From: an uncultured Mycoplasmatota bacterium
GTDB taxonomy: Bacteria > Bacillota_I > Bacilli_A > RF39 > UBA660
Direction: 5' to 3'
Length of the DNA stretch: 64,000 nt
Assembly (NCBI GenBank): GCA_947302655.1
Contig: CAMYVW010000003.1
Span: 12,280 to 76,279 of the forward strand
Shown here: positions 22,735 through 42,499 of the stretch, in pieces
Position numbering within the stretch: the first letter of the stretch is position 1
Layout of the letters: the number at the start of each line of letters is the position of its first letter
Made by a program: the position numbers and the translations under genes
The notes under the pieces: model-generated
The model's input: only the letters and a program-made list of their open reading frames with translations
Database searches by the model: none
Told to the model about the DNA's origin: nothing

Positions 22735-22768
22735 AATAATCACTTCAAACATGAAGTGATTATTTTTA
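22735..22768. terminator. bidirectional terminator between convergent genes
   Basis: AATCACTTC-AAACAT-GAAGTGATT plus a T-run. Confidence 0.55.
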
Positions 22769-23986
22769 TAAATCAGATTTATTTACAGTTATAAGTGGAA
22801 TAACCTTACAAACAGCTGCTCCATCATCAATATCAATAGTTGATGTATTCTCATTATTTCTTATAACTTTAAAACCATTTTGATTAGATTCACTAGAATA
22901 AAGCCAGTAACAATTAGTATTAACAAGGTAACTATATTTATTATTCATAAAAGAAAAACTACCATTACTTGTTCTAACTTTATTTATAATATTATTGTAA
23001 TCAGCATTAGAATCCATATCTCCTATTATTTGTGGTGATATATTAGTGCCACTAAAAGTAGAATTAAATATATCATATGATAATACCTTAATAATAGTAT
23101 TAAGTGATAATTCACTTACTGTTGCATTCCAAGACGAAGTATAAGAACTTAAACTAGAACTATAGTTATTATATGTAGATGTAGGATAGTTATCATATAT
23201 ATTAGGTAATAAAGTAAGTGTTGCATTACCTTTTTTACTATCATAATCTAATACAGTTGTACTTAAACATGTTTGTGAAAGTGAATCACAACCTTTATTT
23301 TGAACTACATCATATAAAATAACATCACCAAGATTATATGTCATATCAGATGCTTCATTTGAATCAATATATTGTTCTGCAGCTAGTTCAATTACTATTT
23401 GAATAGAAGGTCTAATAGAATAACTATTATCACTGCTATGTCTTTGTTGTTCTTGATTTTGAAAAGTATATGAGTTTCTTCCCCAAGTTGAATCTAAAGC
23501 ATCATTTCCAGAATCAAGTGGCCATGAAATAGATACTTCAAATTGGGTTTCATCATTATTATTTTTAACATATCGTTTATTTAAATTTATATTTATATGA
23601 AACGGATAATCATGAGATAAAATATTCTCTAAACTTTTTTGATTCTGTCCTGTGGTAACAGCTGTTACGTTTGTATCAAATATTCTTGCAGATTGAATAT
23701 TATATGATAAAGCAGCATTTGAATCTCCTTTATTTTGTATCTTAACTAATTCAGTTACAGTCTCCATACCAGGATAAATATCATCAAGTGTAACAACTAT
23801 ATTATTAGTTACCACTTCATTATCCTTTTTCATTTCAATATACCATGACTGGATATCAACATCAGCAGATACTCTTTTTAATCCACTATATGCAAACCAT
23901 GCATATGTAGTAAATAGAAAAGTAGCTGCAACAAAAAAAAGTGGGATTATATAAATTTTAAGACGTTTCTTAAAAAGTTTTTTCAT
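22766..23986 (-). CDS. TasA/camelysin-like secreted protein with SipW-cognate signal peptide (distal gene of the array)
   Basis: N-terminal K-rich segment, TM, then TTYAWFAYSG (compare TasA GGTWAAFND). Next comes …LDDIYPGMETVTELVKIQNKGDSNAALSY (compare TasA NLKPGDKLTKDFQFENNGSLAI). Confidence 0.6.
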   Translation of the reverse strand: MKKLFKKRLKIYIIPLFFVAATFLFTTYAWFAYSGLKRVSADVDIQSWYIEMKKDNEVVTNNIVVTLDDIYPGMETVTELVKIQNKGDSNAALSYNIQSARIFDTNVTAVTTGQNQKSLENILSHDYPFHININLNKRYVKNNNDETQFEVSISWPLDSGNDALDSTWGRNSYTFQNQEQQRHSSDNSYSIRPSIQIVIELAAEQYIDSNEASDMTYNLGDVILYDVVQNKGCDSLSQTCLSTTVLDYDSKKGNATLTLLPNIYDNYPTSTYNNYSSSLSSYTSSWNATVSELSLNTIIKVLSYDIFNSTFSGTNISPQIIGDMDSNADYNNIINKVRTSNGSFSFMNNKYSYLVNTNCYWLYSSESNQNGFKVIRNNENTSTIDIDDGAAVCKVIPLITVNKSDL

Positions 23987-23998
23987 ATAATCACTCCT

Positions 23999-24562
23999 TT
24001 ATTTTTCTTCTTCTGTTCTTTTTTTCTCCTCTTTATTCATAAGTGTAGATATTATTTCTGTAGAAATAATGATTAATACAGGAATTATAATGAATAAATA
24101 AAATCCTACATTAGTACTAACTATTTTATATATAAAAGATATTATTAATGATTTATATATAACTTTACCATATAGTTGATCTTCAGATACAATTGGGTCT
24201 TCTACCATATTAGCAAGACCTTTTGCTCTAAAATATAACTTACCATCAACTTTCTCAATGCCAACAACTTGGTGAGTAATAACTTTATCTTTAAAACTGT
24301 TTCTCACTCCAAGATAACTAATAGTATCACCAACTTTAATGTCCTTTGGTTCAACTTCCTTAGCAATTAAAACATCACCAACTTTATATTTTGGTTCCAT
24401 TGATCCAGTAACAACAGTAAACATTCTAAAATTAAATATAGAAATTTTATTATTACTAAATCTTTGTAAACAAACACAGATAATAAAAGCAAACATAAAT
24501 ATAAAAAATATGGCTTTTAGAACTGTAAAACTAATCTTAAATACTTTATTGTCTTTTAACAT
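23999..24562 (-). CDS. sipW: SipW-type (archaeal/ER-type) signal peptidase I
   Basis: VVTGSMEPKYKVGDVLIAKEVEPKDIKVGDTISYL…VITHQVVG… matches B. subtilis SipW, with an N-terminal TM and a C-terminal TM anchor. Confidence 0.8.
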   Translation of the reverse strand: MLKDNKVFKISFTVLKAIFFIFMFAFIICVCLQRFSNNKISIFNFRMFTVVTGSMEPKYKVGDVLIAKEVEPKDIKVGDTISYLGVRNSFKDKVITHQVVGIEKVDGKLYFRAKGLANMVEDPIVSEDQLYGKVIYKSLIISFIYKIVSTNVGFYLFIIIPVLIIISTEIISTLMNKEEKKRTEEEK

Positions 24563-24573
24563 AATACAACCTC

Positions 24574-25710
24574 CTACAAGTACTCACTTGTTTTTGACAA
24601 ATAGTCTTCCATTTCTTTTTGAAATTTTTGTTTAATATCATTACTTCCAACTGCATTTGGATTTTTCTTTTTCTCCATTTCAGCACTTAAAAGCTTTAAT
24701 AGTTCAGATTCTTTAATTTTAATTCCATTTTTTAATAGTATATTTACGGCATTTTGAACCTGATTCATAACAATTAATAGAGCATAACTCTTAAGTTTTT
24801 CTTTTTCTACTTTTTTATCTCTTGTAATAGAATCTAAAGCATAATAATTCATTAAAAATGCCTCATCCATGATGCTTTTAATTAGTTTTCCACTTTTAAT
24901 TTTACCAGATTCTATATCATCTGCTTCACTGTTCATAACACTATATAAGTAGTCCCATAATTTTAAAGCCATTTGAAAGTTTGGATTCTTTAAAATTAAG
25001 TTAGTTTTTTTAATAGGCGGTGATACAAGTGGAGCATGAAGTTTTTTTAATGAAGTGATTAAAGTACTTGCAAGCCAAGGATTAATATAAGTCTTTTTTA
25101 TACTTGCAAGTTTCTTTTTAAGATTTTCAACTATTTTTTCAAAATCATTATCACCATTATTAACAATATTAGTTGGTACAGTTACTAAATTTAACTCTAC
25201 CATTACTTTATCTCTACCATTTGTAGTTTCAGCTCTATATTCTAAAGTTTTTTCATTCTTTGGAACAATATTTTTTAGAGCTTCTTCTTTCTCTTGAATA
25301 AACTTTAATAAATTTATAATTAAAGTATAAATAAATCTATTTTCATAAGTATTATATGTTTCTTCTCTAAATAAAACTAATAACTTAGATGGTAAAACAT
25401 CACCAGTTTTTTCATCTATTTTATCAATATAATCAGTATGTTTAGATAAATCTTTAATACTTTCAATACTAGTTTTTCTGGCTTTTTCAATTTTTGTAAC
25501 ATTAGTTTCACCAACTAGTACTACTTTGGGATTACGAACAATATTGTCAATATATGGGCAAACTTCTTCAATAATTTCAAGCCACTCTAATGAGTTAATA
25601 TCACTATTAAGTGAAGCATCAAACTTGATAGATGATTTGTTGTTTTTAAGAAAGTTTTGACTATTTTTCTTAAGCATCTCATCTACAGTTAAATTAATAA
25701 CCTTTCCCAT
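24574..25710 (-). CDS. McrC-like partner protein of the adjacent McrB-family GTPase; no obvious PD-(D/E)xK motif
   Basis: An 11-nt gap separates it from sipW and a 21-nt gap from the GTPase. The segment ETYNTYENRFIYTLIINLLKF resembles the McrC N-domain motif (…LPNRLIKSALLRLL…). The C-terminal half appears helical and has no recognisable nuclease signature. Confidence 0.35.
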   Translation of the reverse strand: MGKVINLTVDEMLKKNSQNFLKNNKSSIKFDASLNSDINSLEWLEIIEEVCPYIDNIVRNPKVVLVGETNVTKIEKARKTSIESIKDLSKHTDYIDKIDEKTGDVLPSKLLVLFREETYNTYENRFIYTLIINLLKFIQEKEEALKNIVPKNEKTLEYRAETTNGRDKVMVELNLVTVPTNIVNNGDNDFEKIVENLKKKLASIKKTYINPWLASTLITSLKKLHAPLVSPPIKKTNLILKNPNFQMALKLWDYLYSVMNSEADDIESGKIKSGKLIKSIMDEAFLMNYYALDSITRDKKVEKEKLKSYALLIVMNQVQNAVNILLKNGIKIKESELLKLLSAEMEKKKNPNAVGSNDIKQKFQKEMEDYLSKTSEYL

Positions 25711-25731
25711 ATTAATCCCTCTTTATTCTAA

Positions 25732-27273
25732 TTATGCAGACTTCTTAAGTCTTTCTAGGAACTCGATACATTCTTTCATATTTCCATTACCGAATTCTTT
25801 ATTTAAATATTTAATAAATCCATCAATTTCATCGCGTATTAATATTAAGTTTAATTGTTCAAATTTTCTTAATACTTTTTTAGCTAAGAAGTAATCGATA
25901 CCTGCAACTTCAGTACCTCCACAAGCTACATATACTGGAGCAAATACTTTTAACTGTTTCATAATACGATTACCGAAAGCAATTCTAAAATGTTCAATAA
26001 CATAATTATCAAGTTTATTAATAATATCTATACCTTTATCAGAAATAGCATACTTTTCAGTAGCTTCTTTAAATAGATCTTCTAAATAACTTGAGTTAAT
26101 ATCCATAGCTTCTTGTTCACGGCAAGTAAATGGATCAATTTTTTCGTTAATATCAATAGGCATTGCTCTATCGTAAACCTTATCTGTAACCATGAATGTT
26201 GAGTCATCGTTATTAATTGTACCAATATACCATAAGTTACCAGGAAGTCTCAATTTACCATGTTCTAGTAATTTAGGATCATCTGGCCATGTAGTTGTAA
26301 CAAGTTCAATAATCCATTCTTTACGGTTTGGAACTTCTAGAACTGATAACATTTCTGCAAAATAATATTCAACACGAGCAATATTCATTTCATCTAGAAT
26401 AATTGTATGGATATCATCATCAAATCTAGATAAGTATAATTCTTCAAGAACATTACTTTCATTAAACTTCTTTGTAAACTCATTGAAATATCCTAAAAGC
26501 TCTGTTTTATCACGCCAAGATGGTTGAACAGATGCAATACATGAGTTATGTTTAACGAATTTTCCCCATGCATATGCTAAGGAAGTTTTACCTGTTCCAG
26601 AAATACCTTGTAGGATTATAAGTTTACTACAGGCAAGTCCACCAAAGAAAGCTCTAAGTAAGCTTTCATTGTAATATAAATGTAATTGAGATGCTGCAAA
26701 ACATCTAAAGTTATCAATTAATTCTTCAAGATTAAAATTACCATTGTAATTTTTAGGTTTAAAGTTTTTCATAGCTTCATCAATACGAATTAATTTAGGG
26801 AATCTTGCAGTACCTGCATTTGGATCAGCATCTGGATTAGCGTTTTCTTCACCTGGAAGTCCAGATGAGTCTTCTCCTCCTTCTCCTGGTTTAAGTCCTA
26901 ACTGTGAAACCTTCATAGCCATAAGTTCATCTTTTTCTTTCATCAACTTACGAACTTTTTTATTAAGGTTATCTATTTCATCTAACAATTCATCTTGATT
27001 TAACTTTTGTTTTCTTAATCTAAAATATTTTCTTACTTTAGTAAATATTAAAAATAATACTCCAAGAATTATTACGACTAAGAAAAGAACTGTTATAACA
27101 ACAAAAATCCATTCAACAGCACCAAAACTACTTTTATAATTATCTAGTACTTTTTTGTAGTCAAAATAATTAAAGATTTCTTTAATACCATTAAACATAC
27201 CTTTAAATATCATACCTACGCCGTTAAAAAAAACAGAAGTAAATTCGTAAAAAAATCTAAAAAATGTATTCAT
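25732..27273 (-). CDS. membrane-anchored McrB-family (AAA_5) AAA+ GTPase
   Basis: Walker A LQGISGTGKTSLAYAWGKF. The McrB-type Walker B and downstream region IILDEMNIARVEYYFAEMLSVLE…WYIGTINNDDSTFMVTDKVYDRAMPIDI resembles McrB FIIDEINRANLSKVFGEVMMLME…GLMNTADRSL…DYALRRRF. The N-terminus has a TM helix EWIFVVITVLFLVVIILGVLFLIF, a coiled coil and a Gly/Pro/acidic linker. Confidence 0.7.
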   Translation of the reverse strand: MNTFFRFFYEFTSVFFNGVGMIFKGMFNGIKEIFNYFDYKKVLDNYKSSFGAVEWIFVVITVLFLVVIILGVLFLIFTKVRKYFRLRKQKLNQDELLDEIDNLNKKVRKLMKEKDELMAMKVSQLGLKPGEGGEDSSGLPGEENANPDADPNAGTARFPKLIRIDEAMKNFKPKNYNGNFNLEELIDNFRCFAASQLHLYYNESLLRAFFGGLACSKLIILQGISGTGKTSLAYAWGKFVKHNSCIASVQPSWRDKTELLGYFNEFTKKFNESNVLEELYLSRFDDDIHTIILDEMNIARVEYYFAEMLSVLEVPNRKEWIIELVTTTWPDDPKLLEHGKLRLPGNLWYIGTINNDDSTFMVTDKVYDRAMPIDINEKIDPFTCREQEAMDINSSYLEDLFKEATEKYAISDKGIDIINKLDNYVIEHFRIAFGNRIMKQLKVFAPVYVACGGTEVAGIDYFLAKKVLRKFEQLNLILIRDEIDGFIKYLNKEFGNGNMKECIEFLERLKKSA

Positions 27274-27275
27274 AT

Positions 27276-29282
27276 TTATTTATACTCTCCTATTCTTTTT
27301 AAAATATTATCAATAATTATTTTATCATAAATTTGTTTTGGTATGTTTTTTGATAACTTGCTTAAATCCATTTTTTTATCCGTAAAATAATAATCTGACA
27401 TAAAGATATAAGCTAGTTCTTCACTTGTGTATTCCTTATATTCGTCAAAAATCAAAGCAAATAAATATCCTTTTTTTCTTAATCTCATTATATCATCATT
27501 ATTTTGCAAAATATTAGAAACTGTAGAAGTAATTATAATATGATTTTTTGCATATTCATTATCAATAATAGATGCTATTCTATCTAGTTTCTTATCTTTT
27601 CCGTATAATGGATTAGGAATATAAACAAAATATTTAGCGTTGCTATTACCATTTAAAATATCTTTAACTACTCTACATAAAATTAGATTAAATAAAACAG
27701 ATAGTTTATCTTCTGATACAATTCCATCACTATAAGTTTTATCAACAATATATTTACTATAAACCTTGCTAAACTTAATATTATAGTTTAAATAAACACC
27801 GAAGTAATTAGGTTCATCTTTAAATCTATTATATATTGCTATAAAAGAATTTGTTTCAAATTTCTTAATAATTTCATTAATAATTTCACTTGAATATCTA
27901 ATAACAGCTTTAATATTATTTAGTAACAAGTCATTATCTACATCAAAATACTTATGTAATTCTTTCTCAAAATCAATATTTTTCTTATCTTCTATATCAT
28001 ATATAAATAATAATGCATTAGAGTAAAGTTCTATTGCTTTAGTCTTTGTATCATCATTTTGATTCTTCTTTATTAAAGCTTTCTTATTATCGTTAAAAAT
28101 CATCTTAAAAGATTTTCTTTCTTCAGGTAGTGAATAATATTTTAAATAAACATATTGTTTAATAAGTTCGCTTCTAAAAGAAGATTTTTTAATATAAGAA
28201 TATTCATCATCTAATAAAAGATCAATTATTTCGTTATACATTATATTTTTGATAATAAATAATTTATCAACGATATTTTTAGCCTTTTTAGCATTAATTT
28301 TTTCTCTTAAGTAATCCTTAGTAATTACTTTTTCTTCTTTCTCTTCTTCTATTTCTTCTGCTTCCAAAACTATATCATCTTGTTTAATTTTAACATCTAC
28401 TTTTTGATCATCTTCAACTGGTTTAATAGATGTATCACTATTTGGTTCTTCAATATCATCAACTTTAATGATCCTTAATACTGCAGTTTTAGATAAATCT
28501 TCTTCTTTTATCTTATTATCTTCATTAAATTCAACTACATTACCTGACTCACCATCAACAGTAACTTTTCTAAATAGAATAGTTTTACTCATTTCATCTT
28601 CAGGTTCATCATCTTCATCGTCATCAGATGCAAATACATCAGAATAATCAGGTTTAAATTTATTTTCTTCACTTGATGTAGTATTAGTAACATTAGTTAC
28701 TTTTATAGTATCATTTCGATGTTTAAAACTTCTAATCTTATTTTTAATTATTCCAATATACTTATTTAATATCTTATTAGAAGATTTCTTTCCAGCATTT
28801 AAATAAAGGTTAACAAAATACAATGTAATAATTAAGAAAATAATAACTATAGGATTAAAAATAGTTTTTTTAAGGAAACCAAAAGAGTGAAGAACTTTTT
28901 TTACTTTACCAACAATTTGGCTTCTATCAATTGGTTTATCTTTAGCATTATTAGCATCACCTTTAGTTACAAAAGAATCTTGGTAGGCTTCAACTACACG
29001 GTGTGTAATAAAATTATTATCCTGTTTATATGTAATAATATCACCTATTTTGATATTATTATCACTTTTAACTAAAATCCAATCTCCAATTTCAACTGAT
29101 CCATGCATACTGCCAGTTTGAATTTCAAATAGTGAATAACCAAATAAACTAGAATGATCATTTTTTAAGATTTTAACTTGAATAAAAGAATAAATAGAAG
29201 CAAGCAAAAAAAGGGCAAATAATACTATTAAAGCATTTAAAGCATAATCAGTAATTTTACTAAAAACTTTTACTTTCTTCAT
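27276..29282 (-). CDS. SipW-type signal peptidase fused to a ~450-aa C-terminal (predicted cytoplasmic) domain of unknown function
   Basis: N-terminal TM, then QTGSMHGSVEIGDWILVKSDNNIKIGDIITYKQDNNFITHRVVE…TKGDANNAKDKPIDRSQIVGKVKKV, which carries the SipW catalytic Ser/His boxes. A second TM follows, then an acidic linker DDDEDDEPEDE, then a 450-aa domain. The protein is 668 aa. Confidence 0.65.
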   Translation of the reverse strand: MKKVKVFSKITDYALNALIVLFALFLLASIYSFIQVKILKNDHSSLFGYSLFEIQTGSMHGSVEIGDWILVKSDNNIKIGDIITYKQDNNFITHRVVEAYQDSFVTKGDANNAKDKPIDRSQIVGKVKKVLHSFGFLKKTIFNPIVIIFLIITLYFVNLYLNAGKKSSNKILNKYIGIIKNKIRSFKHRNDTIKVTNVTNTTSSEENKFKPDYSDVFASDDDEDDEPEDEMSKTILFRKVTVDGESGNVVEFNEDNKIKEEDLSKTAVLRIIKVDDIEEPNSDTSIKPVEDDQKVDVKIKQDDIVLEAEEIEEEKEEKVITKDYLREKINAKKAKNIVDKLFIIKNIMYNEIIDLLLDDEYSYIKKSSFRSELIKQYVYLKYYSLPEERKSFKMIFNDNKKALIKKNQNDDTKTKAIELYSNALLFIYDIEDKKNIDFEKELHKYFDVDNDLLLNNIKAVIRYSSEIINEIIKKFETNSFIAIYNRFKDEPNYFGVYLNYNIKFSKVYSKYIVDKTYSDGIVSEDKLSVLFNLILCRVVKDILNGNSNAKYFVYIPNPLYGKDKKLDRIASIIDNEYAKNHIIITSTVSNILQNNDDIMRLRKKGYLFALIFDEYKEYTSEELAYIFMSDYYFTDKKMDLSKLSKNIPKQIYDKIIIDNILKRIGEYK

Positions 29283-29351
29283 AATTATCTACTATCCTAT
29301 ACTACATAATATTCTACCATAATCACGGTTTTTTTCCAAGAAAAAAAACTC

Positions 29352-29894
29352 TTACGAGTTTTCTATTTCATCATCATTTTTTCCATATTTTATCTCAATT
29401 ATTAATGTGTATAATTGATAAATAAATAGGAAGAAGTTAGGAACTAATATTATAAACAAAAAGCCCCATTTAGATTCAATAACTGAAAGATATGTACCAA
29501 TATTAGAATAAGACTTAGTTCCAGTTCCCATTATAAACTCTTTTGAATATGTTTCGCCATTTTCAAATGATATTGAATCTTGATCTTCAAATACTTGACC
29601 TACTTTACCATATTGAACAGATGCTCCACCTTGACCATCTAAATGATAAGTAAATACCATATCTCCAGCTTTATAATCCTTAATTAGTTTATTTTCAACA
29701 AAAACCAAAGATCCTTTTTTATAATTTTCAGATGAAAATTCTTTTTTTACTATTAATAACGAAGTATCACCAAATTGTGTTATTCCATACTTATTATGAT
29801 TTAAAACAAGCACTGTCATTGTTATTGTAAATGCAAGAAAAATAACAATTAATGTTGTTGTAAATATCTTTTTAACTAACTTAAATCCTTTCAA
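29352..29894 (-). CDS. SipW-like paralogue with degenerate catalytic motifs (possible pseudo-peptidase)
   Basis: Same N-TM, beta-domain, C-TM architecture and KKGSLVFVENKLIKDYKAGDMVFTYHLDG box as SipW. It has ITQFGDTSLLIV where GSMEP should be, and no THR box. Confidence 0.4.
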   Translation of the reverse strand: MKGFKLVKKIFTTTLIVIFLAFTITMTVLVLNHNKYGITQFGDTSLLIVKKEFSSENYKKGSLVFVENKLIKDYKAGDMVFTYHLDGQGGASVQYGKVGQVFEDQDSISFENGETYSKEFIMGTGTKSYSNIGTYLSVIESKWGFLFIILVPNFFLFIYQLYTLIIEIKYGKNDDEIENS

Positions 29895-29951
29895 TTTCGC
29901 ACCACCTATACTATAAAATTATCATAACATACAAGTTATTATTCTTCAACA

Positions 29952-30839
29952 CTAATTACACCCACTAGACTCTCGTATTACAAAATCATTTAAAGATAAA
30001 TCACTATTATTACTTCGTTTGAAAAATTTAATTTTAGAACTAGAATCTGCATTAACAATAGTTTTAAATCCATTAACATAATCATTAGCATCATACTGAA
30101 GATTAGTAGTTAAATTATTAATATCTAATACTCTATTAGTACTATCAAAAGTAATTTGTAAGCACTTATTTTGTGAATAAGTATTATTCAATATTAATTC
30201 ACTAAAATTTGAATAAACCTTATTTATATTAGTTATTTCTCCACTACTTTTAATATTTCTTTGTAACTTAAAAACACCAGATAAACTCTTTGAATAAGGA
30301 CTTGTACTAGTTGCAGTTATTCTAACATCAATTTCTTTATCTTGATCATTTTGATTATTAAAAACAATATTAAAATAGTTGTTTTGCGATACTTTTTGTT
30401 TTACCCAATTATATCCATCGACTTCACATTCAGTCTTATTATAAGATGTAACATCAGTTTCATCTTTCTCATTTACACATCTAGCATTACTTGATAAAAC
30501 AAGATTTAAAGTACTATTATTACTATCGTTAATTGTACAACTAGCATTAATATTCTCAGTTAAAACTTCACACGTTACAGTATATCTAATATCAAAATCA
30601 GTTATTAAGTTTTCACTAGCATAATTTTTCAAAGTAAATGTTGTACTACCACCATCCCACAGAAGATTGGTATTATTTTTATTGGTTTTTAATTCGTTAC
30701 TTTCGAAATAAAATCCCTTAGATTTTAAGTAGTATCCTTTCATATAACTAGAAGTATATCTACCAAAAGAAATGATTGCTAAAGAAAATGATATAGATAT
30801 AAGTATAAACATAATTAATACTTTTTTCTTTTTATTCAT
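29952..30839 (-). CDS. secreted Cys-containing Asn/Ser-rich protein with SipW-cognate-like signal (minor fibre/accessory component)
   Basis: MNKKKKVLIMFILISISFSLAIISFGRYTSSY…; 295 aa with six Cys. Confidence 0.45.
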   Translation of the reverse strand: MNKKKKVLIMFILISISFSLAIISFGRYTSSYMKGYYLKSKGFYFESNELKTNKNNTNLLWDGGSTTFTLKNYASENLITDFDIRYTVTCEVLTENINASCTINDSNNSTLNLVLSSNARCVNEKDETDVTSYNKTECEVDGYNWVKQKVSQNNYFNIVFNNQNDQDKEIDVRITATSTSPYSKSLSGVFKLQRNIKSSGEITNINKVYSNFSELILNNTYSQNKCLQITFDSTNRVLDINNLTTNLQYDANDYVNGFKTIVNADSSSKIKFFKRSNNSDLSLNDFVIRESSGCN

Positions 30840-34555: not shown

Positions 34556-34571
34556 AACATCACCTTCTTAT

Positions 34572-35642
34572 CTAAAATTCATAACCTGCTAAATCTTTTT
34601 CAAGATCTAAACTTAAATTTAGTGGAGCTCCCTCAGAATGAACTTCTAAAGCATCTATATCTTGTCCTTCTATCCAAAGGTAAACTCTAACTTTAGTAAT
34701 TCCATTTGGTATTTGAAACAATGGTTCAGAAAATTCATCGTCTTTTCTTGTTTCCTGAAGAGCAAAGTGTTCTGTATCAAAAGAACCGCTAGAAGAAATA
34801 AGCCCACTTTTATGATCAAGTCTTCTTCCTTCTTTAATAACTGCATACGTAGGAACATATGTGTTATCAACAAGATCAATACCAAATTCTTTTACAGCAT
34901 CAATAGATTCTTGATTGTGCTTCAAACTATTTGGTTCATAAATAAGCGAAACGCATTCATTATTACACTGTAAATTTTGAATAGTATATACATCAGCTTT
35001 TAAATCCGTTTCTCCAATTTTTACAAATCCGAGTCTAATAGAGTTCATAATATCTTCCATTTTTTCCCTAGTTTCTTGATCTGCAGTTTCATCAAACTCA
35101 ATATAAGTTCCACTACTTAAATAAAGATTATCTTTATATGGAGATCCAGATACATTCTTTAAAAATATATCAAAAGCTATATAGTTACTATACTCACTTG
35201 GACTATCTTCTGAAATCAAATCAGTATTAACAAATCTTTTACCTCTTCTTGCTTTATCAGTATATTTTCCCATTGATCCTGAATAAACATCAAATTTATC
35301 ATTGTTTGGAGAAGAAATACCATTTGATGAAACTGACCAAAGACCATTAGTAGCCCATTGATTAGTATGATTAGGATAATTTTTCTTAACTTCATGTATA
35401 ACAGACTCTCTAGATATTTCAATAGAATCAGAAAAATTAACACCATCTAAAGAAATAAATAAACCTGTATCTGTTGATACTTTAACATTAAAGAATTTAA
35501 TTTTAACATTTAAGGATGCTGAAAACCATGCATAAGTTGCAAAAAGAAAAACTACACCAACAAAAAATGTAACAAGAAAGATATATTTAGTTTTCTTAGA
35601 AAACTTTGGAATATGAAGTTTTTCTTTTATGTTAGTTTTCAT
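34572..35642 (-). CDS. TasA-like fibre subunit paralogue (SipW-cognate signal)
   Basis: …FLFATYAWFSASLNVKIKFFNVKVSTDTGLFISLDG…, and a C-terminal motif KVRVYLWIEGQDIDALEV shared with the two major-subunit genes. The RBS GGAGGA precedes the ATG at 35642. Confidence 0.55.
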   Translation of the reverse strand: MKTNIKEKLHIPKFSKKTKYIFLVTFFVGVVFLFATYAWFSASLNVKIKFFNVKVSTDTGLFISLDGVNFSDSIEISRESVIHEVKKNYPNHTNQWATNGLWSVSSNGISSPNNDKFDVYSGSMGKYTDKARRGKRFVNTDLISEDSPSEYSNYIAFDIFLKNVSGSPYKDNLYLSSGTYIEFDETADQETREKMEDIMNSIRLGFVKIGETDLKADVYTIQNLQCNNECVSLIYEPNSLKHNQESIDAVKEFGIDLVDNTYVPTYAVIKEGRRLDHKSGLISSSGSFDTEHFALQETRKDDEFSEPLFQIPNGITKVRVYLWIEGQDIDALEVHSEGAPLNLSLDLEKDLAGYEF

Positions 35643-35654
35643 AATATCCTCCAT

Positions 35655-35734: not shown

Positions 35735-37420
35735 TTATTCATTAGTAACAGTTACAGTTACAACTTCAGTAGCTACGTTTCCAGCTTCATCTGCTACTTC
35801 ATATAATACTCTGTATACACCAGGTACTGCATTATTTACAGTTCCTGTTATAGTAGCATGAATTCCAGATCCTTCTGGTCCATACCATTCATCTGCATCA
35901 TCTGCAGTGTCATGAGTATATGGAGTTAAGTTATCAGTAATAGCTGTAATTGTAGGTTGAGTGAATGTACCGTTCTTAGCTATAGTTTGATTTTGAGATC
36001 CGCTTAATGTAATAACAGGAGCAGTCTTATCTATAGTTTTTAACTTAGTAATAATTTGAGCTTCTGTTGGACTTACACCTTCACCAAGTTCTAATTCTGT
36101 AGCTAAAGCTTCAATTATTTCAGCTCTTGTTTGGTTAGGTCCTTCACCTTGATTTAGTACTGGTCCTTGATAGTTAATATCATCTTCAGTAAATCTTTCT
36201 TTAGTGAATCCGAAGTTAACAGCTATTTGTTTACCTATAGAAGCAAAGTCATAGTTATCAATGTCTTGTCCTTCAATATAGATATACACTCTAACTTTTG
36301 TAATACTATTTGGTGCTAAAGTAATGAATGTAGGTCTTTCAACACCAGTTTTTAATTTCATTGTATCAGTAAAGTATGGATATGCAAATAAGTATTTACC
36401 AGCATTTCCTTCAGCAGCACTAATAGCAATAGCCTCAGTATCAGCTATATCTCCAGTATAGCTATTAAATGCACTACCATCATAGATATCAACTGAATTC
36501 ATAGCAGTGATTTCTTTACCAATCGCATATGTTGGATATGTTTGACCATCAACTACTGTTCCACACGCACCTTCATAAGAAGCAGCTAAGCTTGTATCAG
36601 TTCCAGCAGCTTTTCTTGCTCTACAAGTAGTATTATACCAAGTTAGAGCATCTGGTACGTGGTTTGTATCATTTGGTTCCCAAATTTGAGCTGTACGGCA
36701 AATACCAGTTACAGTCGAATCAGTTGCACAAGTAATACCTTGAATTGTTGATGCATCTGTATTAGTTGCCTCTACACGACCAATTTGTGCAAATGCAACA
36801 CGAACAGAATTTTCAATACCAGTGTTTGCAACGCCTGTTGATCCAACTACAACCTTAGAATCATTTGTTAAATAAATTGCTTCTTCGTTAAGTGGATTAT
36901 TTGTCTGGTAATATTCAGCACCAGATGAGTTTTTAATAAATAAGTCGAATGCAACATAACCATCAGGTGTTGTAGAATCGTTATTAACTCTACTAGCCAT
37001 TAATCTATAACCACCTGCAGTAGTTGTTAAACTACCTTTTTCAAATAATGTTAAACGACTTGTTGTTGTATTAATAATACCAATTGATGACATAGGAATT
37101 AATCCACGTCCACCCCAAGTATTTGTATTAGTTGGGTATGGATTTCCTTGTGCAGTTAATGTATTATCTGCAGCAGTCTCTGCAGCAGGGTTTCTAAAGT
37201 TTGTACTGTTAATTGCTACTGTATCGCTCCAGTTTACACCATCAAGTGATAACTGTAAGTCTTCTGTTGCAGCAATACGAACTTCGAATGGAGAAACATT
37301 AACAGTTCTCATACCAATAAACCATGCATAAGTTGCTGTTCCTAGGACGATTGCCATAAAAGTAAATACTATAGCAAGTCGCAATATTCTTTTTTTCTTA
37401 CTAGAATTCTTCCTTTTCAT
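35735..37420 (-). CDS. TasA-like major fibre subunit with C-terminal Ig-like (DUF5011-type) domain
   Basis: …LGTATYAWFIGMRTVNVSPFEVRIAATEDLQLSLDG…VRVYIYIEGQDIDNYDFASIGKQIAVNFGFTKERFTE… followed by …NAVPGVYRVLYEVADEAGNVATEVVTVTVTNE. Its Thr/Ala/Gly-rich composition and GC-richer codon use resemble the ribosomal-protein genes in this window. Confidence 0.6.
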   Translation of the reverse strand: MKRKNSSKKKRILRLAIVFTFMAIVLGTATYAWFIGMRTVNVSPFEVRIAATEDLQLSLDGVNWSDTVAINSTNFRNPAAETAADNTLTAQGNPYPTNTNTWGGRGLIPMSSIGIINTTTSRLTLFEKGSLTTTAGGYRLMASRVNNDSTTPDGYVAFDLFIKNSSGAEYYQTNNPLNEEAIYLTNDSKVVVGSTGVANTGIENSVRVAFAQIGRVEATNTDASTIQGITCATDSTVTGICRTAQIWEPNDTNHVPDALTWYNTTCRARKAAGTDTSLAASYEGACGTVVDGQTYPTYAIGKEITAMNSVDIYDGSAFNSYTGDIADTEAIAISAAEGNAGKYLFAYPYFTDTMKLKTGVERPTFITLAPNSITKVRVYIYIEGQDIDNYDFASIGKQIAVNFGFTKERFTEDDINYQGPVLNQGEGPNQTRAEIIEALATELELGEGVSPTEAQIITKLKTIDKTAPVITLSGSQNQTIAKNGTFTQPTITAITDNLTPYTHDTADDADEWYGPEGSGIHATITGTVNNAVPGVYRVLYEVADEAGNVATEVVTVTVTNE

Positions 37421-37448
37421 ATATATTTCCTTTCCTTCTCAGTCTATA

Positions 37449-39056
37449 TTATTCTGTTACAGTAACAGTAGAAATTGCTTCAGCATAATTTCCTTGCCAG
37501 TCACTTACTAAGTACCTAACTACATATGTACCTGCAGTAGCAACTACTGGGTTAGTTACTTGAACCTTAGTAGTTAAATCAAATGTACACTTATTATTAG
37601 CCCATGTTCCTTGAGCAGTGTTACATTTAGCTTCAGTATCTTCAGCACCAACGTCTGATGCAGTTACACCAGCCATTGGGTTATAACTTGCAACTTGTGC
37701 AACTGTTAAGTTCTTAGTAGCTTCTACACCAGCTATAATAGGTTTAATCTCATCACCTGTTGGCATGTTAGGTCCATCTATACCTTGAGCTTCTTCTTCA
37801 GTAAATCTCTCTTTAGTAAATCCAAATGAAACATTTATTTGTTTTCCTATAGATGAGAAATCATAGTTATCAATATCTTGTCCTTCAATCCATACATAAA
37901 CTCTTATCTTAGTAATACTATTAGGAGCAAGTGTAATAAATGTTGGGCGATTAATACCAGTTAAATTTTTCTCGGTATCAGTAAAGTAATCGTAGGCATA
38001 TAGTGGTTGGCTATCACTATAATTTGTTCTTGTAGTAGCAGAATATCCATTATATTGAGTTCCATCATAAATATCAACTTTATCAGCTATATCAACAACA
38101 CGTCCTACAGCATAAGTATTTTTTGCAGTACCATTAGCAACTGCTGTACAAGCTCCATCTAATGTATAAGATGTTGCAAGTGTAATATCAGTTGGATCTG
38201 TTATTGGATCAACTGCAGCCTTTCTAGGTCTACAAGAAGTATTGTAATAACTTATAGCATTATTAACGTGAGCAATATCATTTGGTTCCCAAATTTGAGC
38301 TACACGGCAAATACCAGTTACAGGAGAGTTTTCTCCAGGAACACATTTAATTCCAGTTATTGTATTAACATCAGTTGTTTTTGCATTAACACGACCAATT
38401 TGTGCAAAAGCTACACGAACTGAATTTTCAAGTCCAGTATTAGCAACTCCAGTTGAACCAACACTAACTTGAGAATCTGTAGTTAAATAAATTGGTTCCT
38501 CATTCAAAATATTATCTTCTGTGTAGTATGCTTGACCTGAGAAGTTCTTAACAAATAAGTCAAATGCAATATATCCACCATTTTCAGTATTAAATCCATA
38601 AGCATTTACTGAATTTGCATACTGCTGATTAGTTTGATAATTGTGAATTCGGCTTGCAAGAAGTCTATAACCACCAGGTGTAGCAGTTAAACTACCCTTC
38701 TCATACATCTTCATTGTAGAAGATGCTGTGTCGATTTCACCAATTGAAGAAATTGGTTTTAGGCCAGGATTGACAGCTCCAGTACCAAGTCCTGCCCAGT
38801 TATTAACATTACCTGTATAAGATACTGAACTAAAGTTACCACTATCTATTGTAACAGTCGTATCCCAGGTATTTCCATCAAGAGATAAAAGCAAACTATC
38901 AGTACTTGCTATGTCAATTTCAAAGCTTTGAACATTAACAGCTCTCATACCGATAAACCATGCATAAGTTGATACTGCAAATACTATTAATAAAAGAAAT
39001 GAAATAACAACTAATCGCTTAACTCTTTTAGATTTTAGATTTTCATTTTTGTTCAT
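37449..39056 (-). CDS. TasA-like major fibre subunit, tandem paralogue of 35735-37420
   Basis: …AVSTYAWFIGMRAVNVQSFEIDIASTDSLLLSLDG…IRVYVWIEGQDIDNYDFSSIGKQINVSFGFTKERFTE…; it has the same architecture and codon bias. Confidence 0.6.
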   Translation of the reverse strand: MNKNENLKSKRVKRLVVISFLLLIVFAVSTYAWFIGMRAVNVQSFEIDIASTDSLLLSLDGNTWDTTVTIDSGNFSSVSYTGNVNNWAGLGTGAVNPGLKPISSIGEIDTASSTMKMYEKGSLTATPGGYRLLASRIHNYQTNQQYANSVNAYGFNTENGGYIAFDLFVKNFSGQAYYTEDNILNEEPIYLTTDSQVSVGSTGVANTGLENSVRVAFAQIGRVNAKTTDVNTITGIKCVPGENSPVTGICRVAQIWEPNDIAHVNNAISYYNTSCRPRKAAVDPITDPTDITLATSYTLDGACTAVANGTAKNTYAVGRVVDIADKVDIYDGTQYNGYSATTRTNYSDSQPLYAYDYFTDTEKNLTGINRPTFITLAPNSITKIRVYVWIEGQDIDNYDFSSIGKQINVSFGFTKERFTEEEAQGIDGPNMPTGDEIKPIIAGVEATKNLTVAQVASYNPMAGVTASDVGAEDTEAKCNTAQGTWANNKCTFDLTTKVQVTNPVVATAGTYVVRYLVSDWQGNYAEAISTVTVTE

Positions 39057-39119
39057 ATACTTTCCCTTCCATATATTTAATAGAGTAATAATTGCTTATA
39101 CATGTTGCCTACAATCTAC

Positions 39120-39175
39120 TATATTACATATAGATTTTAACCTTATATTTGTCAAAAGTCAATTAAAATGTCATA
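39120..39175 (-). promoter_or_regulatory. promoter of the major-subunit genes
   Basis: Minus-strand TTGACA (39151-39156), a 17-nt spacer, then TATATG/TAATAT, in the 160-nt gap 5' of 37449-39056. Confidence 0.4.
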
Positions 39176-39187
39176 TTTTGTAGAAAT

Positions 39188-39231
39188 AAAAGACGAAAAA
39201 TTATTACTATTCGTAACTATTTTTCGTCTTT
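39188..39231 (-). terminator. intrinsic terminator after the 538-aa gene
   Basis: 12-bp perfect stem AAGACGAAAAAT / ATTTTTCGTCTT followed, on the minus strand, by a U-run. The stem overlaps the last codons KDEK*. Confidence 0.55.
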
Positions 39232-40824
39232 ACTATTTAACAGTTTGGAATTTTGTACAATAAACCATATTTTTTCAACAGATAGTGTACTTTTTTCTAT
39301 TTTATAAATCCTTTTAATGAACTCTATTTTATTAACTAGTACATCTAAGTTATCTTCATCTAAATCTTCAGAATTAATGTTAATATTTTCCATACGATAT
39401 CTATCTGATATTATTGAAGAAATACTAGCATCATCATTTATGCTAATTCCTTTAATTATTACATTATTTGGATTAGAAGCAAAATCATCAAATTGATCGC
39501 AAAGTTCTACAAATTGATTAGGGTCATCATGATCAAATATTTCTTTAAAAATTTCAATTTTAAAGAAAGTATAACAATAAAACAAATTAACAATATCACT
39601 TACATGTATGTTTCTATCAGATTGAAGCAATGAAATTTGTTTTTCAAACAATAACTTATCTCTTTTTAAATACATATCAAACAATTTGTTAGCTTGTTCT
39701 AATGAGGCATCTGTTGATTTTGATACAGCCTTATTTTTCTTGTTAAATAATGAACCAACATTTTTTACAAAATCTAATTTATTTGATCCTGTTAGCTTTG
39801 AAATAATTGCATTAATATCCTTTTCAACTTTTTTGATCTCATTATCAACATCACTAACAGTTCTCTTCTTAGAATAGTTTTCTTTAAAATATTCAAATAA
39901 AGGCATAAATTTTAAATAATACTTATACTCTATTGCATTCTGTTTCAATTTTTCTAAAACTGCAAGTAACTTGTTCATAGTCGCTTCATCACTATAATCG
40001 ATTTCATTAATTGTTAAAGTAGAAAGGGTAGTACTTCTAAATTTACTATCTTCAAAATAATTATTTATATCAATATCATTTTTAATTGCTTTTTCAACAA
40101 TATCAGCAATATCTTCTTCTAAAGAACTAGAGTAATCATTATAAAGTTTAGAATATTTATCTTTTAAATCATCATTTGATGATGATTTAGTATCAGCAAG
40201 AATCTTCTTCTTTTCATTTGCAATATATTCTTCAAAGTTCTTCTTATACTTATCAATCAAAATTATAAAATTCAGTTCGATGTGTTTTATAATATCATGA
40301 TTTTTCCAATATATTTCTTCAAACACTTTTGATAAGCCATCATAATTGTTCTTTGATTCAAAGTAAACTGTCATATATTTATTAACATATGAGGTTAAAT
40401 TAAAATCATCACTTTTTAAAACGACACCGGCCTTTTTGAATTTTTCAATTATGTTACTTATAAATATATTTATGTCTTCAAAAGTGTATTCAGAGTAAGA
40501 ATTTATATCATAAATAGCTTCATCAAGCTTAAGTTTTTCTTTAAATGAATTGCATGTATTAAATAAAAATAGTTTATCTTTAAAATCATCTAAAGATTTT
40601 TTAATCTTTTCTATATCATGTTTTTCTGATGAATATTTAAATGATGAACTTTTAGCGTTTATATATTTTGTAACTGCATCTTTGTAGTAATTATAAGACT
40701 TTAAAATTTCATCAATTTTTTGATTATATTTTTTTTGATTTGTTTTGTTATTTGTTGGAAGCGATTGAATCAAGGTTTTCTTTGATTCAATATCATTATT
40801 TATAAAATCCAAAAAATTATTCAT
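39217..40824 (-). CDS. hypothetical cytoplasmic Lys/Glu/Asp-rich protein (no TM, coiled-coil-like)
   Basis: I chose the start at MNNFLDF because GGAAGGAG lies 9 nt upstream. I recognise no domain in its ~535 aa. Confidence 0.45.
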   Translation of the reverse strand: MNNFLDFINNDIESKKTLIQSLPTNNKTNQKKYNQKIDEILKSYNYYKDAVTKYINAKSSSFKYSSEKHDIEKIKKSLDDFKDKLFLFNTCNSFKEKLKLDEAIYDINSYSEYTFEDINIFISNIIEKFKKAGVVLKSDDFNLTSYVNKYMTVYFESKNNYDGLSKVFEEIYWKNHDIIKHIELNFIILIDKYKKNFEEYIANEKKKILADTKSSSNDDLKDKYSKLYNDYSSSLEEDIADIVEKAIKNDIDINNYFEDSKFRSTTLSTLTINEIDYSDEATMNKLLAVLEKLKQNAIEYKYYLKFMPLFEYFKENYSKKRTVSDVDNEIKKVEKDINAIISKLTGSNKLDFVKNVGSLFNKKNKAVSKSTDASLEQANKLFDMYLKRDKLLFEKQISLLQSDRNIHVSDIVNLFYCYTFFKIEIFKEIFDHDDPNQFVELCDQFDDFASNPNNVIIKGISINDDASISSIISDRYRMENININSEDLDEDNLDVLVNKIEFIKRIYKIEKSTLSVEKIWFIVQNSKLLNSKDEK

Positions 40825-40951
40825 TATTAGCATCTCCTTCCTCTAATTTAGAGTCTTCTAGAAATGCGATGAATGAATTGATTGCATCTAATGTTTCAAT
40901 TAACTCTTTTAAAGTTAAATAAGACATATCAAAGTCTTTCTTAGCTTCCAC
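40817..40951 (-). CDS. small acidic protein (44 aa), translationally coupled to the 538-aa gene
   Basis: RBS AAGGGTGA followed by a GTG start (VEAKKDFDMSYLTLKELIETLDAINSFIAFLEDSKLEEGDANNE). Its stop overlaps the next start (ATGAATAA). Confidence 0.3.
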   Translation of the reverse strand: MEAKKDFDMSYLTLKELIETLDAINSFIAFLEDSKLEEGDANNE

Positions 40952-40966
40952 TAGTCATCACCCTTT

Positions 40967-41686
40967 TTAAATTTCTTTATCATATTTTTTAACATCAATT
41001 TCTTTAAATTCAGAATTGAATTCCATATGTAATTTTATTTCTCCACCAAGTAAATTGTCTGTGCAGTCAATATCAGAACCTTCAAGCCAAACAACAATAG
41101 TATATTTATCAATATCACCAGGTTTAAAGTTTTCCCTGTGATCAAGAGTAACTAACTTATCATTTTGAAAAGGTATGGTTCCTTCTTCGGGATTCCCATT
41201 TATACCTATCTTAGCATATGTTGTAGGTTCACCATTTTTATATATTCTAATTCTTATGGCAGTATCAATATTTTTTATTACATCATCAATAATTGTTTCT
41301 GACCAATAATCAGATGTATCAGTACCTGTATTTTCAATGTAAAAAGTATAAGCTATATAATTATCACCATTATGGGAACCATCAATATTATCAATATTTT
41401 CAGGTAACCATTTATAAGATATGTTGTCAAAATAATCTACTGCTTTTGCATATAATTCACTTCTAAACACCTTATAATCCGGATCATCATATATGATTAT
41501 TCCTCTTTCAAAATAAAGGTTCTTATCTAGTGTAATAGTAAAATTTCCATTGTTGTAAATAATTCTCATAACAATATAGGCTAGAAGAAGTAATAAAAGT
41601 ATTACAAGAACAGTTAATCTAACAATTCGTCTAATTTTTTTCTTTTTGCTAAGTTTTTTTACGCTAACTTCAACTTCATGACTCAT
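40967..41686 (-). CDS. membrane-anchored protein sharing the C-terminal W-x-EG-x-DID motif of the TasA-like subunits
   Basis: KKKKIRRIVRLTVLVILLLLLLAYIV… is an uncleaved-looking anchor with no YAWF box. …KYTIVVWLEGSDIDCTDNLLGGEIKLHMEFNSEF compares with VYIWIEGQDIDNYDF…VNFGFTKE. Confidence 0.45.
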   Translation of the reverse strand: MSHEVEVSVKKLSKKKKIRRIVRLTVLVILLLLLLAYIVMRIIYNNGNFTITLDKNLYFERGIIIYDDPDYKVFRSELYAKAVDYFDNISYKWLPENIDNIDGSHNGDNYIAYTFYIENTGTDTSDYWSETIIDDVIKNIDTAIRIRIYKNGEPTTYAKIGINGNPEEGTIPFQNDKLVTLDHRENFKPGDIDKYTIVVWLEGSDIDCTDNLLGGEIKLHMEFNSEFKEIDVKKYDKEI

Positions 41687-41875
41687 GCCTACCATCACCA
41701 TACACTATTCTAGTTAATTATAGAAAAATTAAAATTGAATGTCAATTATATCTAATCAATTTTAAATTAACATATATATTTACAGTAATTTACAAAATTA
41801 TGTACAGTTTGCTTTGCAAATAAATTGTATAGAACTGTAAAATATACTATAATATTTACAAAAGGAGGATTATGT

Positions 41876-42499
41876 GTGAAAAAAGTTTATTTACTATTAA
41901 TACTAGTTTCTTTTTCATTCTGTCTTTCTTTTATGAGCAGCACATACTCTAGGTATGTAGCTGGAACAACAGGAAATATTGACATACCATTTGCCAAATG
42001 GCAAATTCTTTTAAATACCCAAGATATTACTAGTCAAAATAATTCACAGTTAACATTTACCCCTGTAATTGAAACATCAAATAATGTAAATAGTGGTACA
42101 ATAGCTCCTTCATCAAAAGGATACTTTGATATAAGTATTAACCCTGAAAATGTTGATGTATCATTTAGTTACGCTATTAGTTTATCAATAGATGAAGAAA
42201 ATCTACCTGACCTTATTATTACAAAATATGCTATATTACCAGATAATTTTCAAGAAGGAGATACATTACAATACTCTACAATCACAAACAATATTATTGA
42301 AAATAGTCTTTACTATAACAACAACATTCAAAACTTTAGTTTCTCAGAATTTACAATTAGAGTATATTTTGAATGGCTAGAAAATGATCAAAATGAAGTA
42401 ATGGATGATGATGATGATACACAAGTGGGATTGGACGCTGCAGATCAAGAGACAACATTTAATATCTCTGCAAATATATCATTTGAACAAATAGTATAA
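41876..42499 (+). CDS. TasA-like secreted protein with SipW-cognate-like signal (divergently transcribed)
   Basis: AGGAGG followed by a GTG start gives MKKVYLLLILVSFSFCLSFMSSTYSRYVAGTTGNIDIPFAKW…GTIAPSSKGYFDISINPENVDVSFSYAISL. Confidence 0.5.
   Translation: MKKVYLLLILVSFSFCLSFMSSTYSRYVAGTTGNIDIPFAKWQILLNTQDITSQNNSQLTFTPVIETSNNVNSGTIAPSSKGYFDISINPENVDVSFSYAISLSIDEENLPDLIITKYAILPDNFQEGDTLQYSTITNNIIENSLYYNNNIQNFSFSEFTIRVYFEWLENDQNEVMDDDDDTQVGLDAADQETTFNISANISFEQIV

Follow-up and report, generated by a model that had tools for sequence, protein, structure and literature searches.

A conserved locus linking SipW-like signal peptidases, a membrane-anchored McrB-family GTPase and proteins of a putative surface structure in uncultured gut Bacilli

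Introduction

In Bacillus subtilis (tapA-sipW-tasA) and B. cereus (sipW-tasA-calY), the gene for an archaeal/endoplasmic reticulum (ER)-type signal peptidase lies beside the genes for its substrates, and in the current view all known SipW/TasA-type fibres, like their archaeal counterparts, assemble by themselves in the extracellular space and need no energy source. Here we describe a locus with a similar pairing in a 64,000-nucleotide (nt) stretch of contig CAMYVW010000003.1 from an uncultured Mycoplasmatota bacterium, the whole of which is called the window below. The locus (positions 22766-42499) encodes secreted proteins, several of which share an N-terminal box resembling the TasA cleavage site, together with SipW-like signal peptidase homologues and a membrane-anchored McrB-family GTPase with an McrC-like partner. 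Genes for box-bearing, otherwise secreted or unassigned products are named by g and their length in amino acids (aa), such that g561 encodes 561 aa.

Like the TasA operons, the locus places accessory subunits beside a putative major subunit. Its box has the small P1 and aromatic P2' residues of the TasA site (TWA↓AF in TasA, TYA↓WF or TYS↓YF here, arrows marking the cut), and TasA residues 1-83, with the PGD...F.F.N.G strand among them, can be aligned to the g175 family. In contrast to the three genes of the TasA operons there are 15 here, and the putative major subunits are much larger and have no TasA profile similarity. The two active (predicted) peptidases and one inactive peptidase, the GTPase module and an EAL-like domain have no counterpart in tasA operons. 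In Streptococcus pyogenes, the inactive signal-peptidase homologue SipA/LepA is needed for pilus polymerisation; it serves sortase-linked LPXTG pilins, whereas this locus has no sortase motif. Type IV filaments are alike in logic, with a shared N-terminal transmembrane (TM) helix and processing motif, a dedicated peptidase, a hexameric nucleoside triphosphatase (NTPase), minor subunits and an adhesin. However, they have no homologous component, and their processing site is cytoplasmic while that of the locus proteins lies on the outer side of the TM helix; the likeness is one of analogy only. LapD, FimX and YdiV are degenerate EAL receptors or adaptors, whereas the EAL domain here has no sequence-level EAL match.

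The sipW-bsaA-bsaB-bsaC operon of Clostridium perfringens, an anaerobic Firmicute, combines SipW with TasA-like polymerising proteins for which donor-strand exchange has been proposed. Efficient export of this BsaA/TasA-like polymer depends partly on an NTPase-driven type IV pilus-like system (PMC11580942). That energy apparatus is a separate type IV pilus system and not an McrB GTPase of the same operon, and the bsa operon is missing both a pseudo-peptidase and a large TYAWF family. Sulfolobus threads (Saci_0406), Pyrobaculum ABP, Pyrodictium cannulae and haloarchaeal tafi are archaeal filaments that depend on signal peptidase I, though structural similarity to the proteins described here is weak. 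One of the seven tafi genes (tafA-G) encodes a dedicated signal peptidase, TafD, and the word 'ATPase' does not occur in the tafi paper (PMC11821415). None of these archaeal loci is known to encode an NTPase.

A link between McrB GTPases and signal peptidases has been named before. Bell, Makarova, Wolf and Koonin (eLife 2024; PMC11090510) report that the NxD McrB GTPases of one large clade carry a fused FtsB-like TM helix and coiled coil, define the NxD branch by a shortened Nx(D) followed by D/E, along with Walker A and a Walker B of the form DExN, and name the McrB-signal peptidase association CoCoPALM in two sentences, with its analysis deferred. The architecture is like that of our locus. 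Absent from that paper are the families of box proteins, the gene order, the host range, the 538-aa protein, the pseudo-peptidase and the fusion to an EAL-like domain. In the literature searched, the name CoCoPALM did not reappear in any later paper. The GTPase-peptidase link was thus previously known by name only, and the first, sequence-only reading of the window, which called the system undescribed, was essentially right apart from this name.

Results

Conservation and layout of the locus

The locus is a tightly packed array of 14 co-oriented minus-strand open reading frames (ORFs; 22766-41701) plus one divergent plus-strand ORF, 15 genes in all (Table 1). Transcription runs from g244 through g538, g535, g561, g360, g1056, g175, g295, sip180, sipfus668, mcrB513, duf2357_378 and sip187 to g406, with g224 upstream of g244 on the opposite strand. 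In the downstream half, neighbouring genes are mostly separated by 2-28 nt (2, 8, 9, 11, 12, 16, 21 and 28 nt), as the sequence-only reading had said of the 3' half, and the remaining gaps are 57, 69, 80, 133 and 160 nt. That reading had counted 18 genes (17 plus one); because of the gap sizes there is no room for three more. Its McrB-like and DUF2357 pair, SipW fusion, 1056-aa N/S/Y-rich protein and 538-aa cytoplasmic protein are all present.

We scanned one genome per GTDB species with a degenerate pattern for relatives of the GTPase, mcrB513, and at least 573 species genomes encoded one. Eighty loci were retained and the 15 window proteins were mapped onto their ORFs; the 36 loci that retain 10 kb to either side are referred to as full-flank. 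Gene order was alike almost everywhere among the 80 loci. The core block of sipfus668, mcrB513, duf2357, sip187 and g406 was complete, each gene being found in 36/36 full-flank loci, followed by sip180 and g224 (86% each), g175 and g295 (83% each), g1056 (78%) and g538 (24/36, at 28-46% identity). The commonest order, found in 23 loci, was that of the window save that g224 followed g406 on the opposite strand. In several genomes g244, two g561-type genes, g360 and g538 came after g224 instead of before g1056, and since the structural half thus switches position, the locus consists of two modules that stay adjacent. The GTPase was the most conserved gene (51-84% identical across genome loci, median 65%; up to 95% identical to metagenome homologues). 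Flanking genes differed between genomes while the block stayed intact. This combination of kept order and conservation with differing flanks excludes a mosaic of unrelated islands, which we rejected, and disfavours an incidental defence insertion; the locus behaves as one dedicated conserved system, as first proposed.

All 80 loci came from metagenome-assembled genomes (MAGs). Their sources were anaerobic digesters and the gut of humans, pigs, chickens, rabbits, goats and cattle, and their titles mostly read Bacilli, Mollicutes, Tenericutes or Erysipelotrichia bacterium; several others bear labels (such as Muribaculaceae, Ignavibacteriales or Actinomycetes) that are evidently unreliable. The relatives are all uncultured and no sporulation-specific gene was found in the locus flanks, which does not bear out the 'spore-forming Erysipelotrichia/Clostridia-like' organism of the sequence-only reading. 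Their largest contigs measure 1.2-1.5 Mb, which suggests that the genomes of the host lineage are apparently small, 1.2-1.5 Mb or more. Two loci from MAGs labelled Clostridia, L083 and L084 (about 5.6-21.4 kb), contained a divergent version of the system, with large-subunit genes of 335-357 aa, a second g224-like gene and, at the far end, one more gene for a SipW-like peptidase; the box was still conserved.

Signal peptidases

Two of the three peptidase homologues passed TIGR02228 (cut-off 51.85), sip187 with 83 bits and sipfus668 with 72.9 bits. Both kept the catalytic Ser (GSM) and His (THxV), within SGSMEP and ITHEVV in sip187 and TGSMHG and ITHRVV in sipfus668, and judged by these motifs they are catalytically intact. 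The third, sip180, matched NCBIfam models at E 0.016-0.03 only and the sip187 family at 97-98% in hhalign. The GSM and THxV positions are not conserved in its family, and by its sequence sip180 is a pseudo-peptidase from which the catalytic Ser and His are absent. The three SipW homologues reported at first are therefore two that pass the family model and one recognised at profile level. Against the Bacillus SipW equivalog NF046067 (>= 190 bits) the three scored 69, 50 and 15 bits, and on this comparison they are SipW-like but not SipW orthologues.

Behind the peptidase, sipfus668 continues with a TM helix, an acidic linker that is disordered, a helical bundle (residues 322-475) and a degenerate EAL-fold domain (480-668); a SipA-like signal-peptidase domain and the EAL fold were both recognised. 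The linker contained two copies of (D/E)(D/E)(L/M)SKTxxFRxIxV (residues ~228-243 and ~259-274) in which T234, R238, L263, K265, T266, R270 and I272 were at least 90% conserved in 46 homologues, and the neighbouring AAA+ GTPase may dock onto or engage these motifs. The EAL-fold domain had no Pfam match to PF00563 at E <= 0.1, and EAL, ExxE, DDFG and KxD were not visible in the sequence or the consensus. In L083 and L084 the peptidase and the helical/EAL-like part were encoded by separate adjacent genes, so the latter is an independent module. To our knowledge, fusion of an EAL domain to a signal peptidase has not been described.

McrB-family GTPase and its partner

mcrB513 contained a hydrophobic N-terminal segment, a TM helix (residues 55-78), a charged K/E-rich, putative coiled-coil helix and an AAA+ domain. 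Walker A (GISGTGKT), Walker B (LDEMN) and the signature GTINNDD, a shortened NxD form followed by a second Asp, were invariant in 21 homologues. Its sole relatives in the PDB are E. coli McrB (E 3e-5), and the NCBIfam McrB model was matched at E 8e-5 with 21.5 bits against a cut-off of 637, so that mcrB513 is not the E. coli equivalog. By motifs and homology it is an NxD-clade McrB-family GTPase. It also matched FtsL_Actino over residues 56-110 (E 6e-5, 22.9 bits, cut-off 55) and the PADLOC profile PDC-M26A (1e-37). Residues 1-54 are hydrophobic or amphipathic, and M1, F4, R6, Y9, E10, S13, G18, G25, G29, Y39, Y46 and W55 were invariant in the same 21 homologues. Such conservation suggests that the N-terminal segment has a specific intramembrane or interfacial partner. 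The gene starts 2 nt past the end of sipfus668 and is translationally coupled to it.

The partner, duf2357_378, matched PF09823 over residues 24-157 (49.5 bits, cut-off 23.3) with TYENRF conserved. No nuclease was matched in Pfam, NCBIfam or PADLOC, and 61 orthologues had no conserved D...(D/E)xK pattern. With an NxD GTPase that carries an FtsB-like TM helix and coiled coil and is flanked by sipfus668 and sip187, the locus fits the description of CoCoPALM (PMC11090510), from which we infer membership of that exact clade.

N-terminal box

Nine products had a K/R-rich start and one TM helix, and in six of them a conserved T-Y-[AS]-x-[FY] box stood at the outer end of the helix, namely exact TYAWF in g406, g360, g561 and g535, TYSYF in g175 and TYSRY in g224. 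Box, K-rich segment and TM helix occurred together in 6 of 16 locus ORFs vs 0 of the 55 other window ORFs of at least 100 aa. Degenerate boxes followed the signal anchor in g295 (RYTSSY), g1056 (AFGRF) and g244 (IIYNNGNF); the 'at least eight' box proteins of the sequence-only reading are reached only by counting these three, and strictly there are six. The box was invariant among 50 g561-family sequences (Y31 A32 W33 F34) and was kept in orthologues of every family. Even the most divergent loci retained it, as STYAWF, NTYAWF, TTYAKY and GTLARY in L084.

Laid over the TasA site, the box has Thr at P3 besides the small P1 and aromatic P2' residues, the last being, according to PMC10269814, the feature that makes TasA a SipW-specific substrate. 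The SipW-dependent signal model TIGR04088 (34 positions, cut-off 19 bits) matched none of five window N-termini even at E <= 10, with TasA scoring 38 bits as the positive control; the resemblance of the box to the T-[WYF]-A-x-F core of this model was seen by eye and in the hhalign register only. Sortase pili were rejected because no LPXTG-like motif was found near any C-terminus, and no other wall-anchor was present. Type IV pili were rejected as well. A regular-expression search found no class III signal peptide (G↓FTLxE), there was no G↓F/M-T-L-x-E motif before the TM helix, and the box lies after it.

Large-subunit family

The products of g561, its paralogue g535 and the core-only g360 form one family (g360 is 28% identical to g561 and matches the g561 family at 100% in hhalign), to which g244 is a shorter relative. 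g244 matched the C-terminal parts of g535 and g561 by blastp and the g561 family at 79% in hhalign, has in common with the family a C-terminal W-x-EG-x-D-x-D strand, and was 46-74% identical to its orthologues. The family contained four invariant cysteines (C231, C241, C266 and C286 in the g561 alignment) and an invariant EGQDxD motif at 383-388 that was also present in g360 and g244 and echoed in g224 (FEWxEG..DD). By analogy with cannulae, the cysteines could form disulfides and EGQDxD a metal (Ca2+) site.

PF16403 was matched in g561 (29.4 bits, cut-off 27) and sub-threshold in g535, such that the added immunoglobulin (Ig)-like domain claimed at first for the 535-561-aa class passes for g561 alone. 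Beyond this C-terminal match, the large proteins had no Pfam or NCBIfam hit. The g561-family profile aligned to TasA at 0.2% in hhalign and matched the Ig domain and nothing else among PDB sequences, and the core had no significant Foldseek match to any solved structure, filament subunits included. At E <= 0.001 the large family numbered more than 2300 proteins, some with the Ig domain and some lacking it; the best listed were up to 89% identical, and none bears a family name beyond a DUF5011/Ig-domain label. A search of a representative library with the g561 alignment gave 13,589 matches, a number inflated by giant Ig-repeat proteins and not used as family size; about 70 of the best 150 library matches span the core. 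On these profile comparisons the large subunits are a new protein family and not TasA members. We regard g561 and g535 as candidate major subunits and g244 as a candidate base, anchor or minor subunit.

Small secreted proteins, g1056 and g538

Support for a TasA relationship came from the smallest secreted products. PF12389 (Peptidase_M73) was matched by g175 over its N-terminal 68 residues only, at 18.4 bits (E 0.002), below the cut-off of 22.5, and by 23 of 44 g175 orthologues at E <= 0.1 (best E 1e-5); the N-terminus also weakly matched the BsaA family TIGR04090 (E 0.04). The alignment of the g175-family profile to TasA (hhalign 76.5%) kept the box in register, with GITYSYF over GGTWAAF, and laid the L.PG....F.φ.N strand of g175 over TasA's LKPGDKLTKDFQFENNG. 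There was no PF12389 match for g561, g535, g360, g406, g295, g224 or g244, and the g224 family had no Pfam or camelysin match in 46 orthologues. Within the locus, hhalign connected g295 with g175 (95%), g175 with g224 (76%) and g406 with g224 (65%), and g406 carries a TasA-like strand motif, 'YPGMET..E.V.I.N.GDS'. Searches of PDB sequences with the g175 and g224 family profiles gave nothing useful.

By these profiles g175 is a distant TasA/BsaA relative at best, and 'TasA-type' fits the small subunits alone. The TasA-type identity that the sequence-only reading gave to the box proteins holds, as a distant relationship, for the g175 family and fails for the large proteins, which match neither PF12389 nor TIGR04088; likewise, the TasA beta-core signature is visible as a motif, with profile support restricted to the 175-aa family. 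We consider g175, g295 and g406 candidate minor subunits. The true start of g224 is probably the internal V/M before KKVYLLL.

g1056 matched NCBIfam NF047446 (43 bits, cut-off 40) in two stretches, and its orthologues were 27-43% identical and 490-1240 aa long. Matches to GFP in the PDB (E > 0.1) were rejected as spurious. It is a candidate tip protein or adhesin. g538 had no family match in Pfam, NCBIfam or PADLOC and no hydrophobic segment, and is possibly a scaffold.

Genomic context and promoter

EF-Tu/EF-G-sized ORFs, ribosomal-protein genes and an L10 leader upstream give the locus a chromosomal context, and a prophage or plasmid origin was rejected because of them. The window has ~25% guanine-cytosine (GC), rising to 35% in the g561/g535 region at 36001-38000. 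This rise probably reflects an Ala/Gly/Thr-rich composition and is compatible with abundant structural proteins.

Between the divergent genes g224 and g244 lies a promoter-like site, the region's sole perfect match to TTGACA-17-TATAAT, 16 nt upstream of the annotated g244 ATG. A promoter and terminator scan found overall no more sites than expected from shuffled sequence, and the site is only suggestive of a promoter. From the orthologue alignment, g244 probably starts at its sixth codon (M at 41686), so that a leader would fit in between.

At the downstream end of the locus, beside the tRNA-Trp gene, a mechanically called 190-aa ORF (22162-22734, plus strand) encodes a SleB-type cell-wall hydrolase (PF07486); its true start must be further downstream because the called ORF overlaps the tRNA. 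On the other side (42525-46651) lie an Amidase_3 gene with two LysM domains and genes for a CmpB-type membrane protein, an Abi_2 (abortive-infection-like) protein and a zinc phospholipase C-like protein, neighbours that are not kept beside the locus in other genomes.

Table 1 Features of the locus and its immediate surroundings, in window positions.
Feature	Position	Strand	Description
tRNA-Trp (CCA)	22163-22236	(-)	Abuts downstream end of locus, directly past last gene
g406	22766..23986	(-)	TYAWF-box secreted protein, always last gene of core block
sip187	23999..24562	(-)	Stand-alone archaeal/SipW-type signal peptidase I
duf2357_378	24574..25710	(-)	McrC N-terminal-domain homologue
mcrB513	25732..27273	(-)	Membrane-anchored McrB-family AAA+ GTPase
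sipfus668	27276..29282	(-)	Archaeal-type signal peptidase I (residues ~18-156) fused to cytoplasmic modules
sip180	29352..29894	(-)	SipW-like pseudo-peptidase (predicted), same two-TM architecture
g295	29952..30839	(-)	Secreted, N-terminal signal anchor, related to g175
g175	30848..31375	(-)	Small TYSYF-box protein, distant TasA/camelysin/BsaA-like relative
g1056	31385..34555	(-)	N/S/Y-rich, secreted, signal anchor, AFGRF box, two OmpL47/Big_13-type Ig-like domains
g360	34572..35654	(-)	Core-only family member, TYAWF box, without Ig domain
g561	35735..37420	(-)	TYAWF box, signal-anchor helix, ~370-aa beta-rich core, C-terminal PF16403 Ig-like domain
g535	37449..39056	(-)	Large TYAWF-box protein, g561 paralogue (51% identity), C-terminal Ig-like domain
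g538	39217..40833	(-)	Cytoplasmic K/E/N-rich protein, no TM segment
g244	40967..41701	(-)	Signal-anchored short relative of large-subunit family, degenerate box IIYNNGNF
TTGACA-17-TATAAT	41717-41745	(-)	Promoter-like, divergent intergenic region, upstream of g244, 12/12 match
g224	41825..42499	(+)	Divergent small TYSRY-box secreted protein

Discussion

We consider it quite likely that the locus specifies a secreted, peptidase-dependent, multi-subunit surface structure. On balance, and with rather less assurance, we read it as a dedicated machine for a cell-surface fibre or other polymeric surface structure, assembled as follows. Box proteins would insert through Sec as signal-anchored precursors, and sip187 and sipfus668 would cleave these behind the small box residue (TYA↓WF), the counterpart of the TWA↓AF cut that SipW makes in TasA. 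The new N-terminal strand of alternating hydrophobics, which in g561 would correspond to the conserved V40, V42, F45, V47 and I49, would then enter the next subunit in donor-strand exchange. In such a fibre g561 and g535, perhaps with g360, would make the shaft with the optional, species-variable Ig domain on its surface, while g175, g295, g224, g406 and g244 would serve as minor, initiator, adaptor or anchor subunits and g1056 as the adhesin. sip180 may hold precursors as S. pyogenes SipA does for pili. The McrB-like hexamer and its McrC-like activator would dock to the peptidase by way of its linker motifs, its EAL-like domain or the membrane segment. GTP hydrolysis, acting via the TM helix and coiled coil, would either drive an ordered release or supply of subunits or force the polymer across the wall, with the EAL-like domain as a regulatory or docking module. 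That the GTPase is a true motor is possible, but we hold it to be more doubtful than the rest.

Several points weigh against this fibre machine. The filament, the cleavage and any role of the GTPase are predictions from sequence and models. In the AlphaFold2 monomer the putative donor strand (residues 46-51) is packed within the protein's own core, an arrangement that speaks neither for nor against exchange. We know of no TasA, thread, cannula or tafi system that needs an NTPase. The McrB-like domain also matches PDC-M26A, a phage-defence candidate profile, and the EAL-like domain lacks recognisable catalytic motifs.

The most serious rival, though an unlikely one, is that the secreted proteins form a non-filamentous structure, such as a surface-layer (S-layer)-like coat, a sheath or a membrane-anchored adhesin complex, with signal peptidases that merely mature them and a GTPase that regulates or remodels the coat. 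Major proteins that are highly conserved, large (core ~370 aa) and, from the GC and composition shift, probably abundant would suit a coat, as would the lack of a significant match between the core and any solved filament subunit. The Ig-like and SlpX/SbsC-type matches of the C-terminal domain are typical of surface-layer proteins, and the missing LPXTG motif or other wall-anchor points the same way. We think it quite improbable that the cell-wall hydrolase genes flanking the locus in this window, the weak FtsL/FtsB-like similarity of the TM and coiled-coil segment (also noted in PMC11090510) and retention in a lineage whose genomes appear small, suggestive of an important role in the cell, instead reflect envelope biogenesis or division-associated secretion, in which the FtsB/FtsL-like GTPase and SipW-like peptidases would place wall or septum proteins. 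The FtsL match is far below its cut-off and describes a generic TM helix and coiled coil, the flanks are not conserved, and paralogue number and Ig decoration vary as expected for exposed, host-interacting structures.

Slightly less probable still is a TasA/SipW-type matrix operon into which an unrelated McrBC-like defence module, type IV restriction or CoCoNuT-like, was inserted by chance. The GTPase is a bona fide McrB-family member with a DUF2357 partner, its PADLOC match is to a defence candidate, and the Abi_2 gene lies ~2 kb beyond the locus. However, linkage is fixed in order in 36/36 loci across genomes whose GTPases are only 59-84% identical, and the GTPase is the most conserved gene, unlike patchy, fast-evolving defence genes. 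In place of a DNA-binding domain it carries a conserved membrane segment and a TM anchor, no nuclease was detected in the McrC partner, translation of the GTPase is coupled to that of the peptidase fusion, and the block stays intact where the flanks vary.

A stronger form of the fibre reading, which we put forward tentatively and hold to be rather unlikely, is an unrecognised class of NTP-powered surface-filament machinery with an McrB GTPase ring and McrC-like plunger recruited from restriction systems. Assembly of the processed subunits would then be ordered and possibly dynamic, gated by the degenerate EAL-fold domain on the peptidase, and the machine would do the work of the type IV pilus triad of motor, peptidase and pilin without being homologous to it. 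A large clade of uncultured gut Bacilli might use it as their chief organelle of adhesion, and its major subunit would belong to a new filament-protein family.

If true, a fibre coupled to a GTPase borrowed from restriction enzymes would revise the picture of energy-free assembly and would give a large branch of the McrBC family a non-defence function. The peptidase-EAL fusion is a concrete experimental handle on these questions. Most likely, the locus represents a dedicated, lineage-wide and essentially uncharacterised surface-structure system built around SipW-type peptidases. It is among the most conserved multi-gene features in widespread uncultured gut and rumen Bacilli, and a prime candidate for their attachment to hosts, particles or partner cells.

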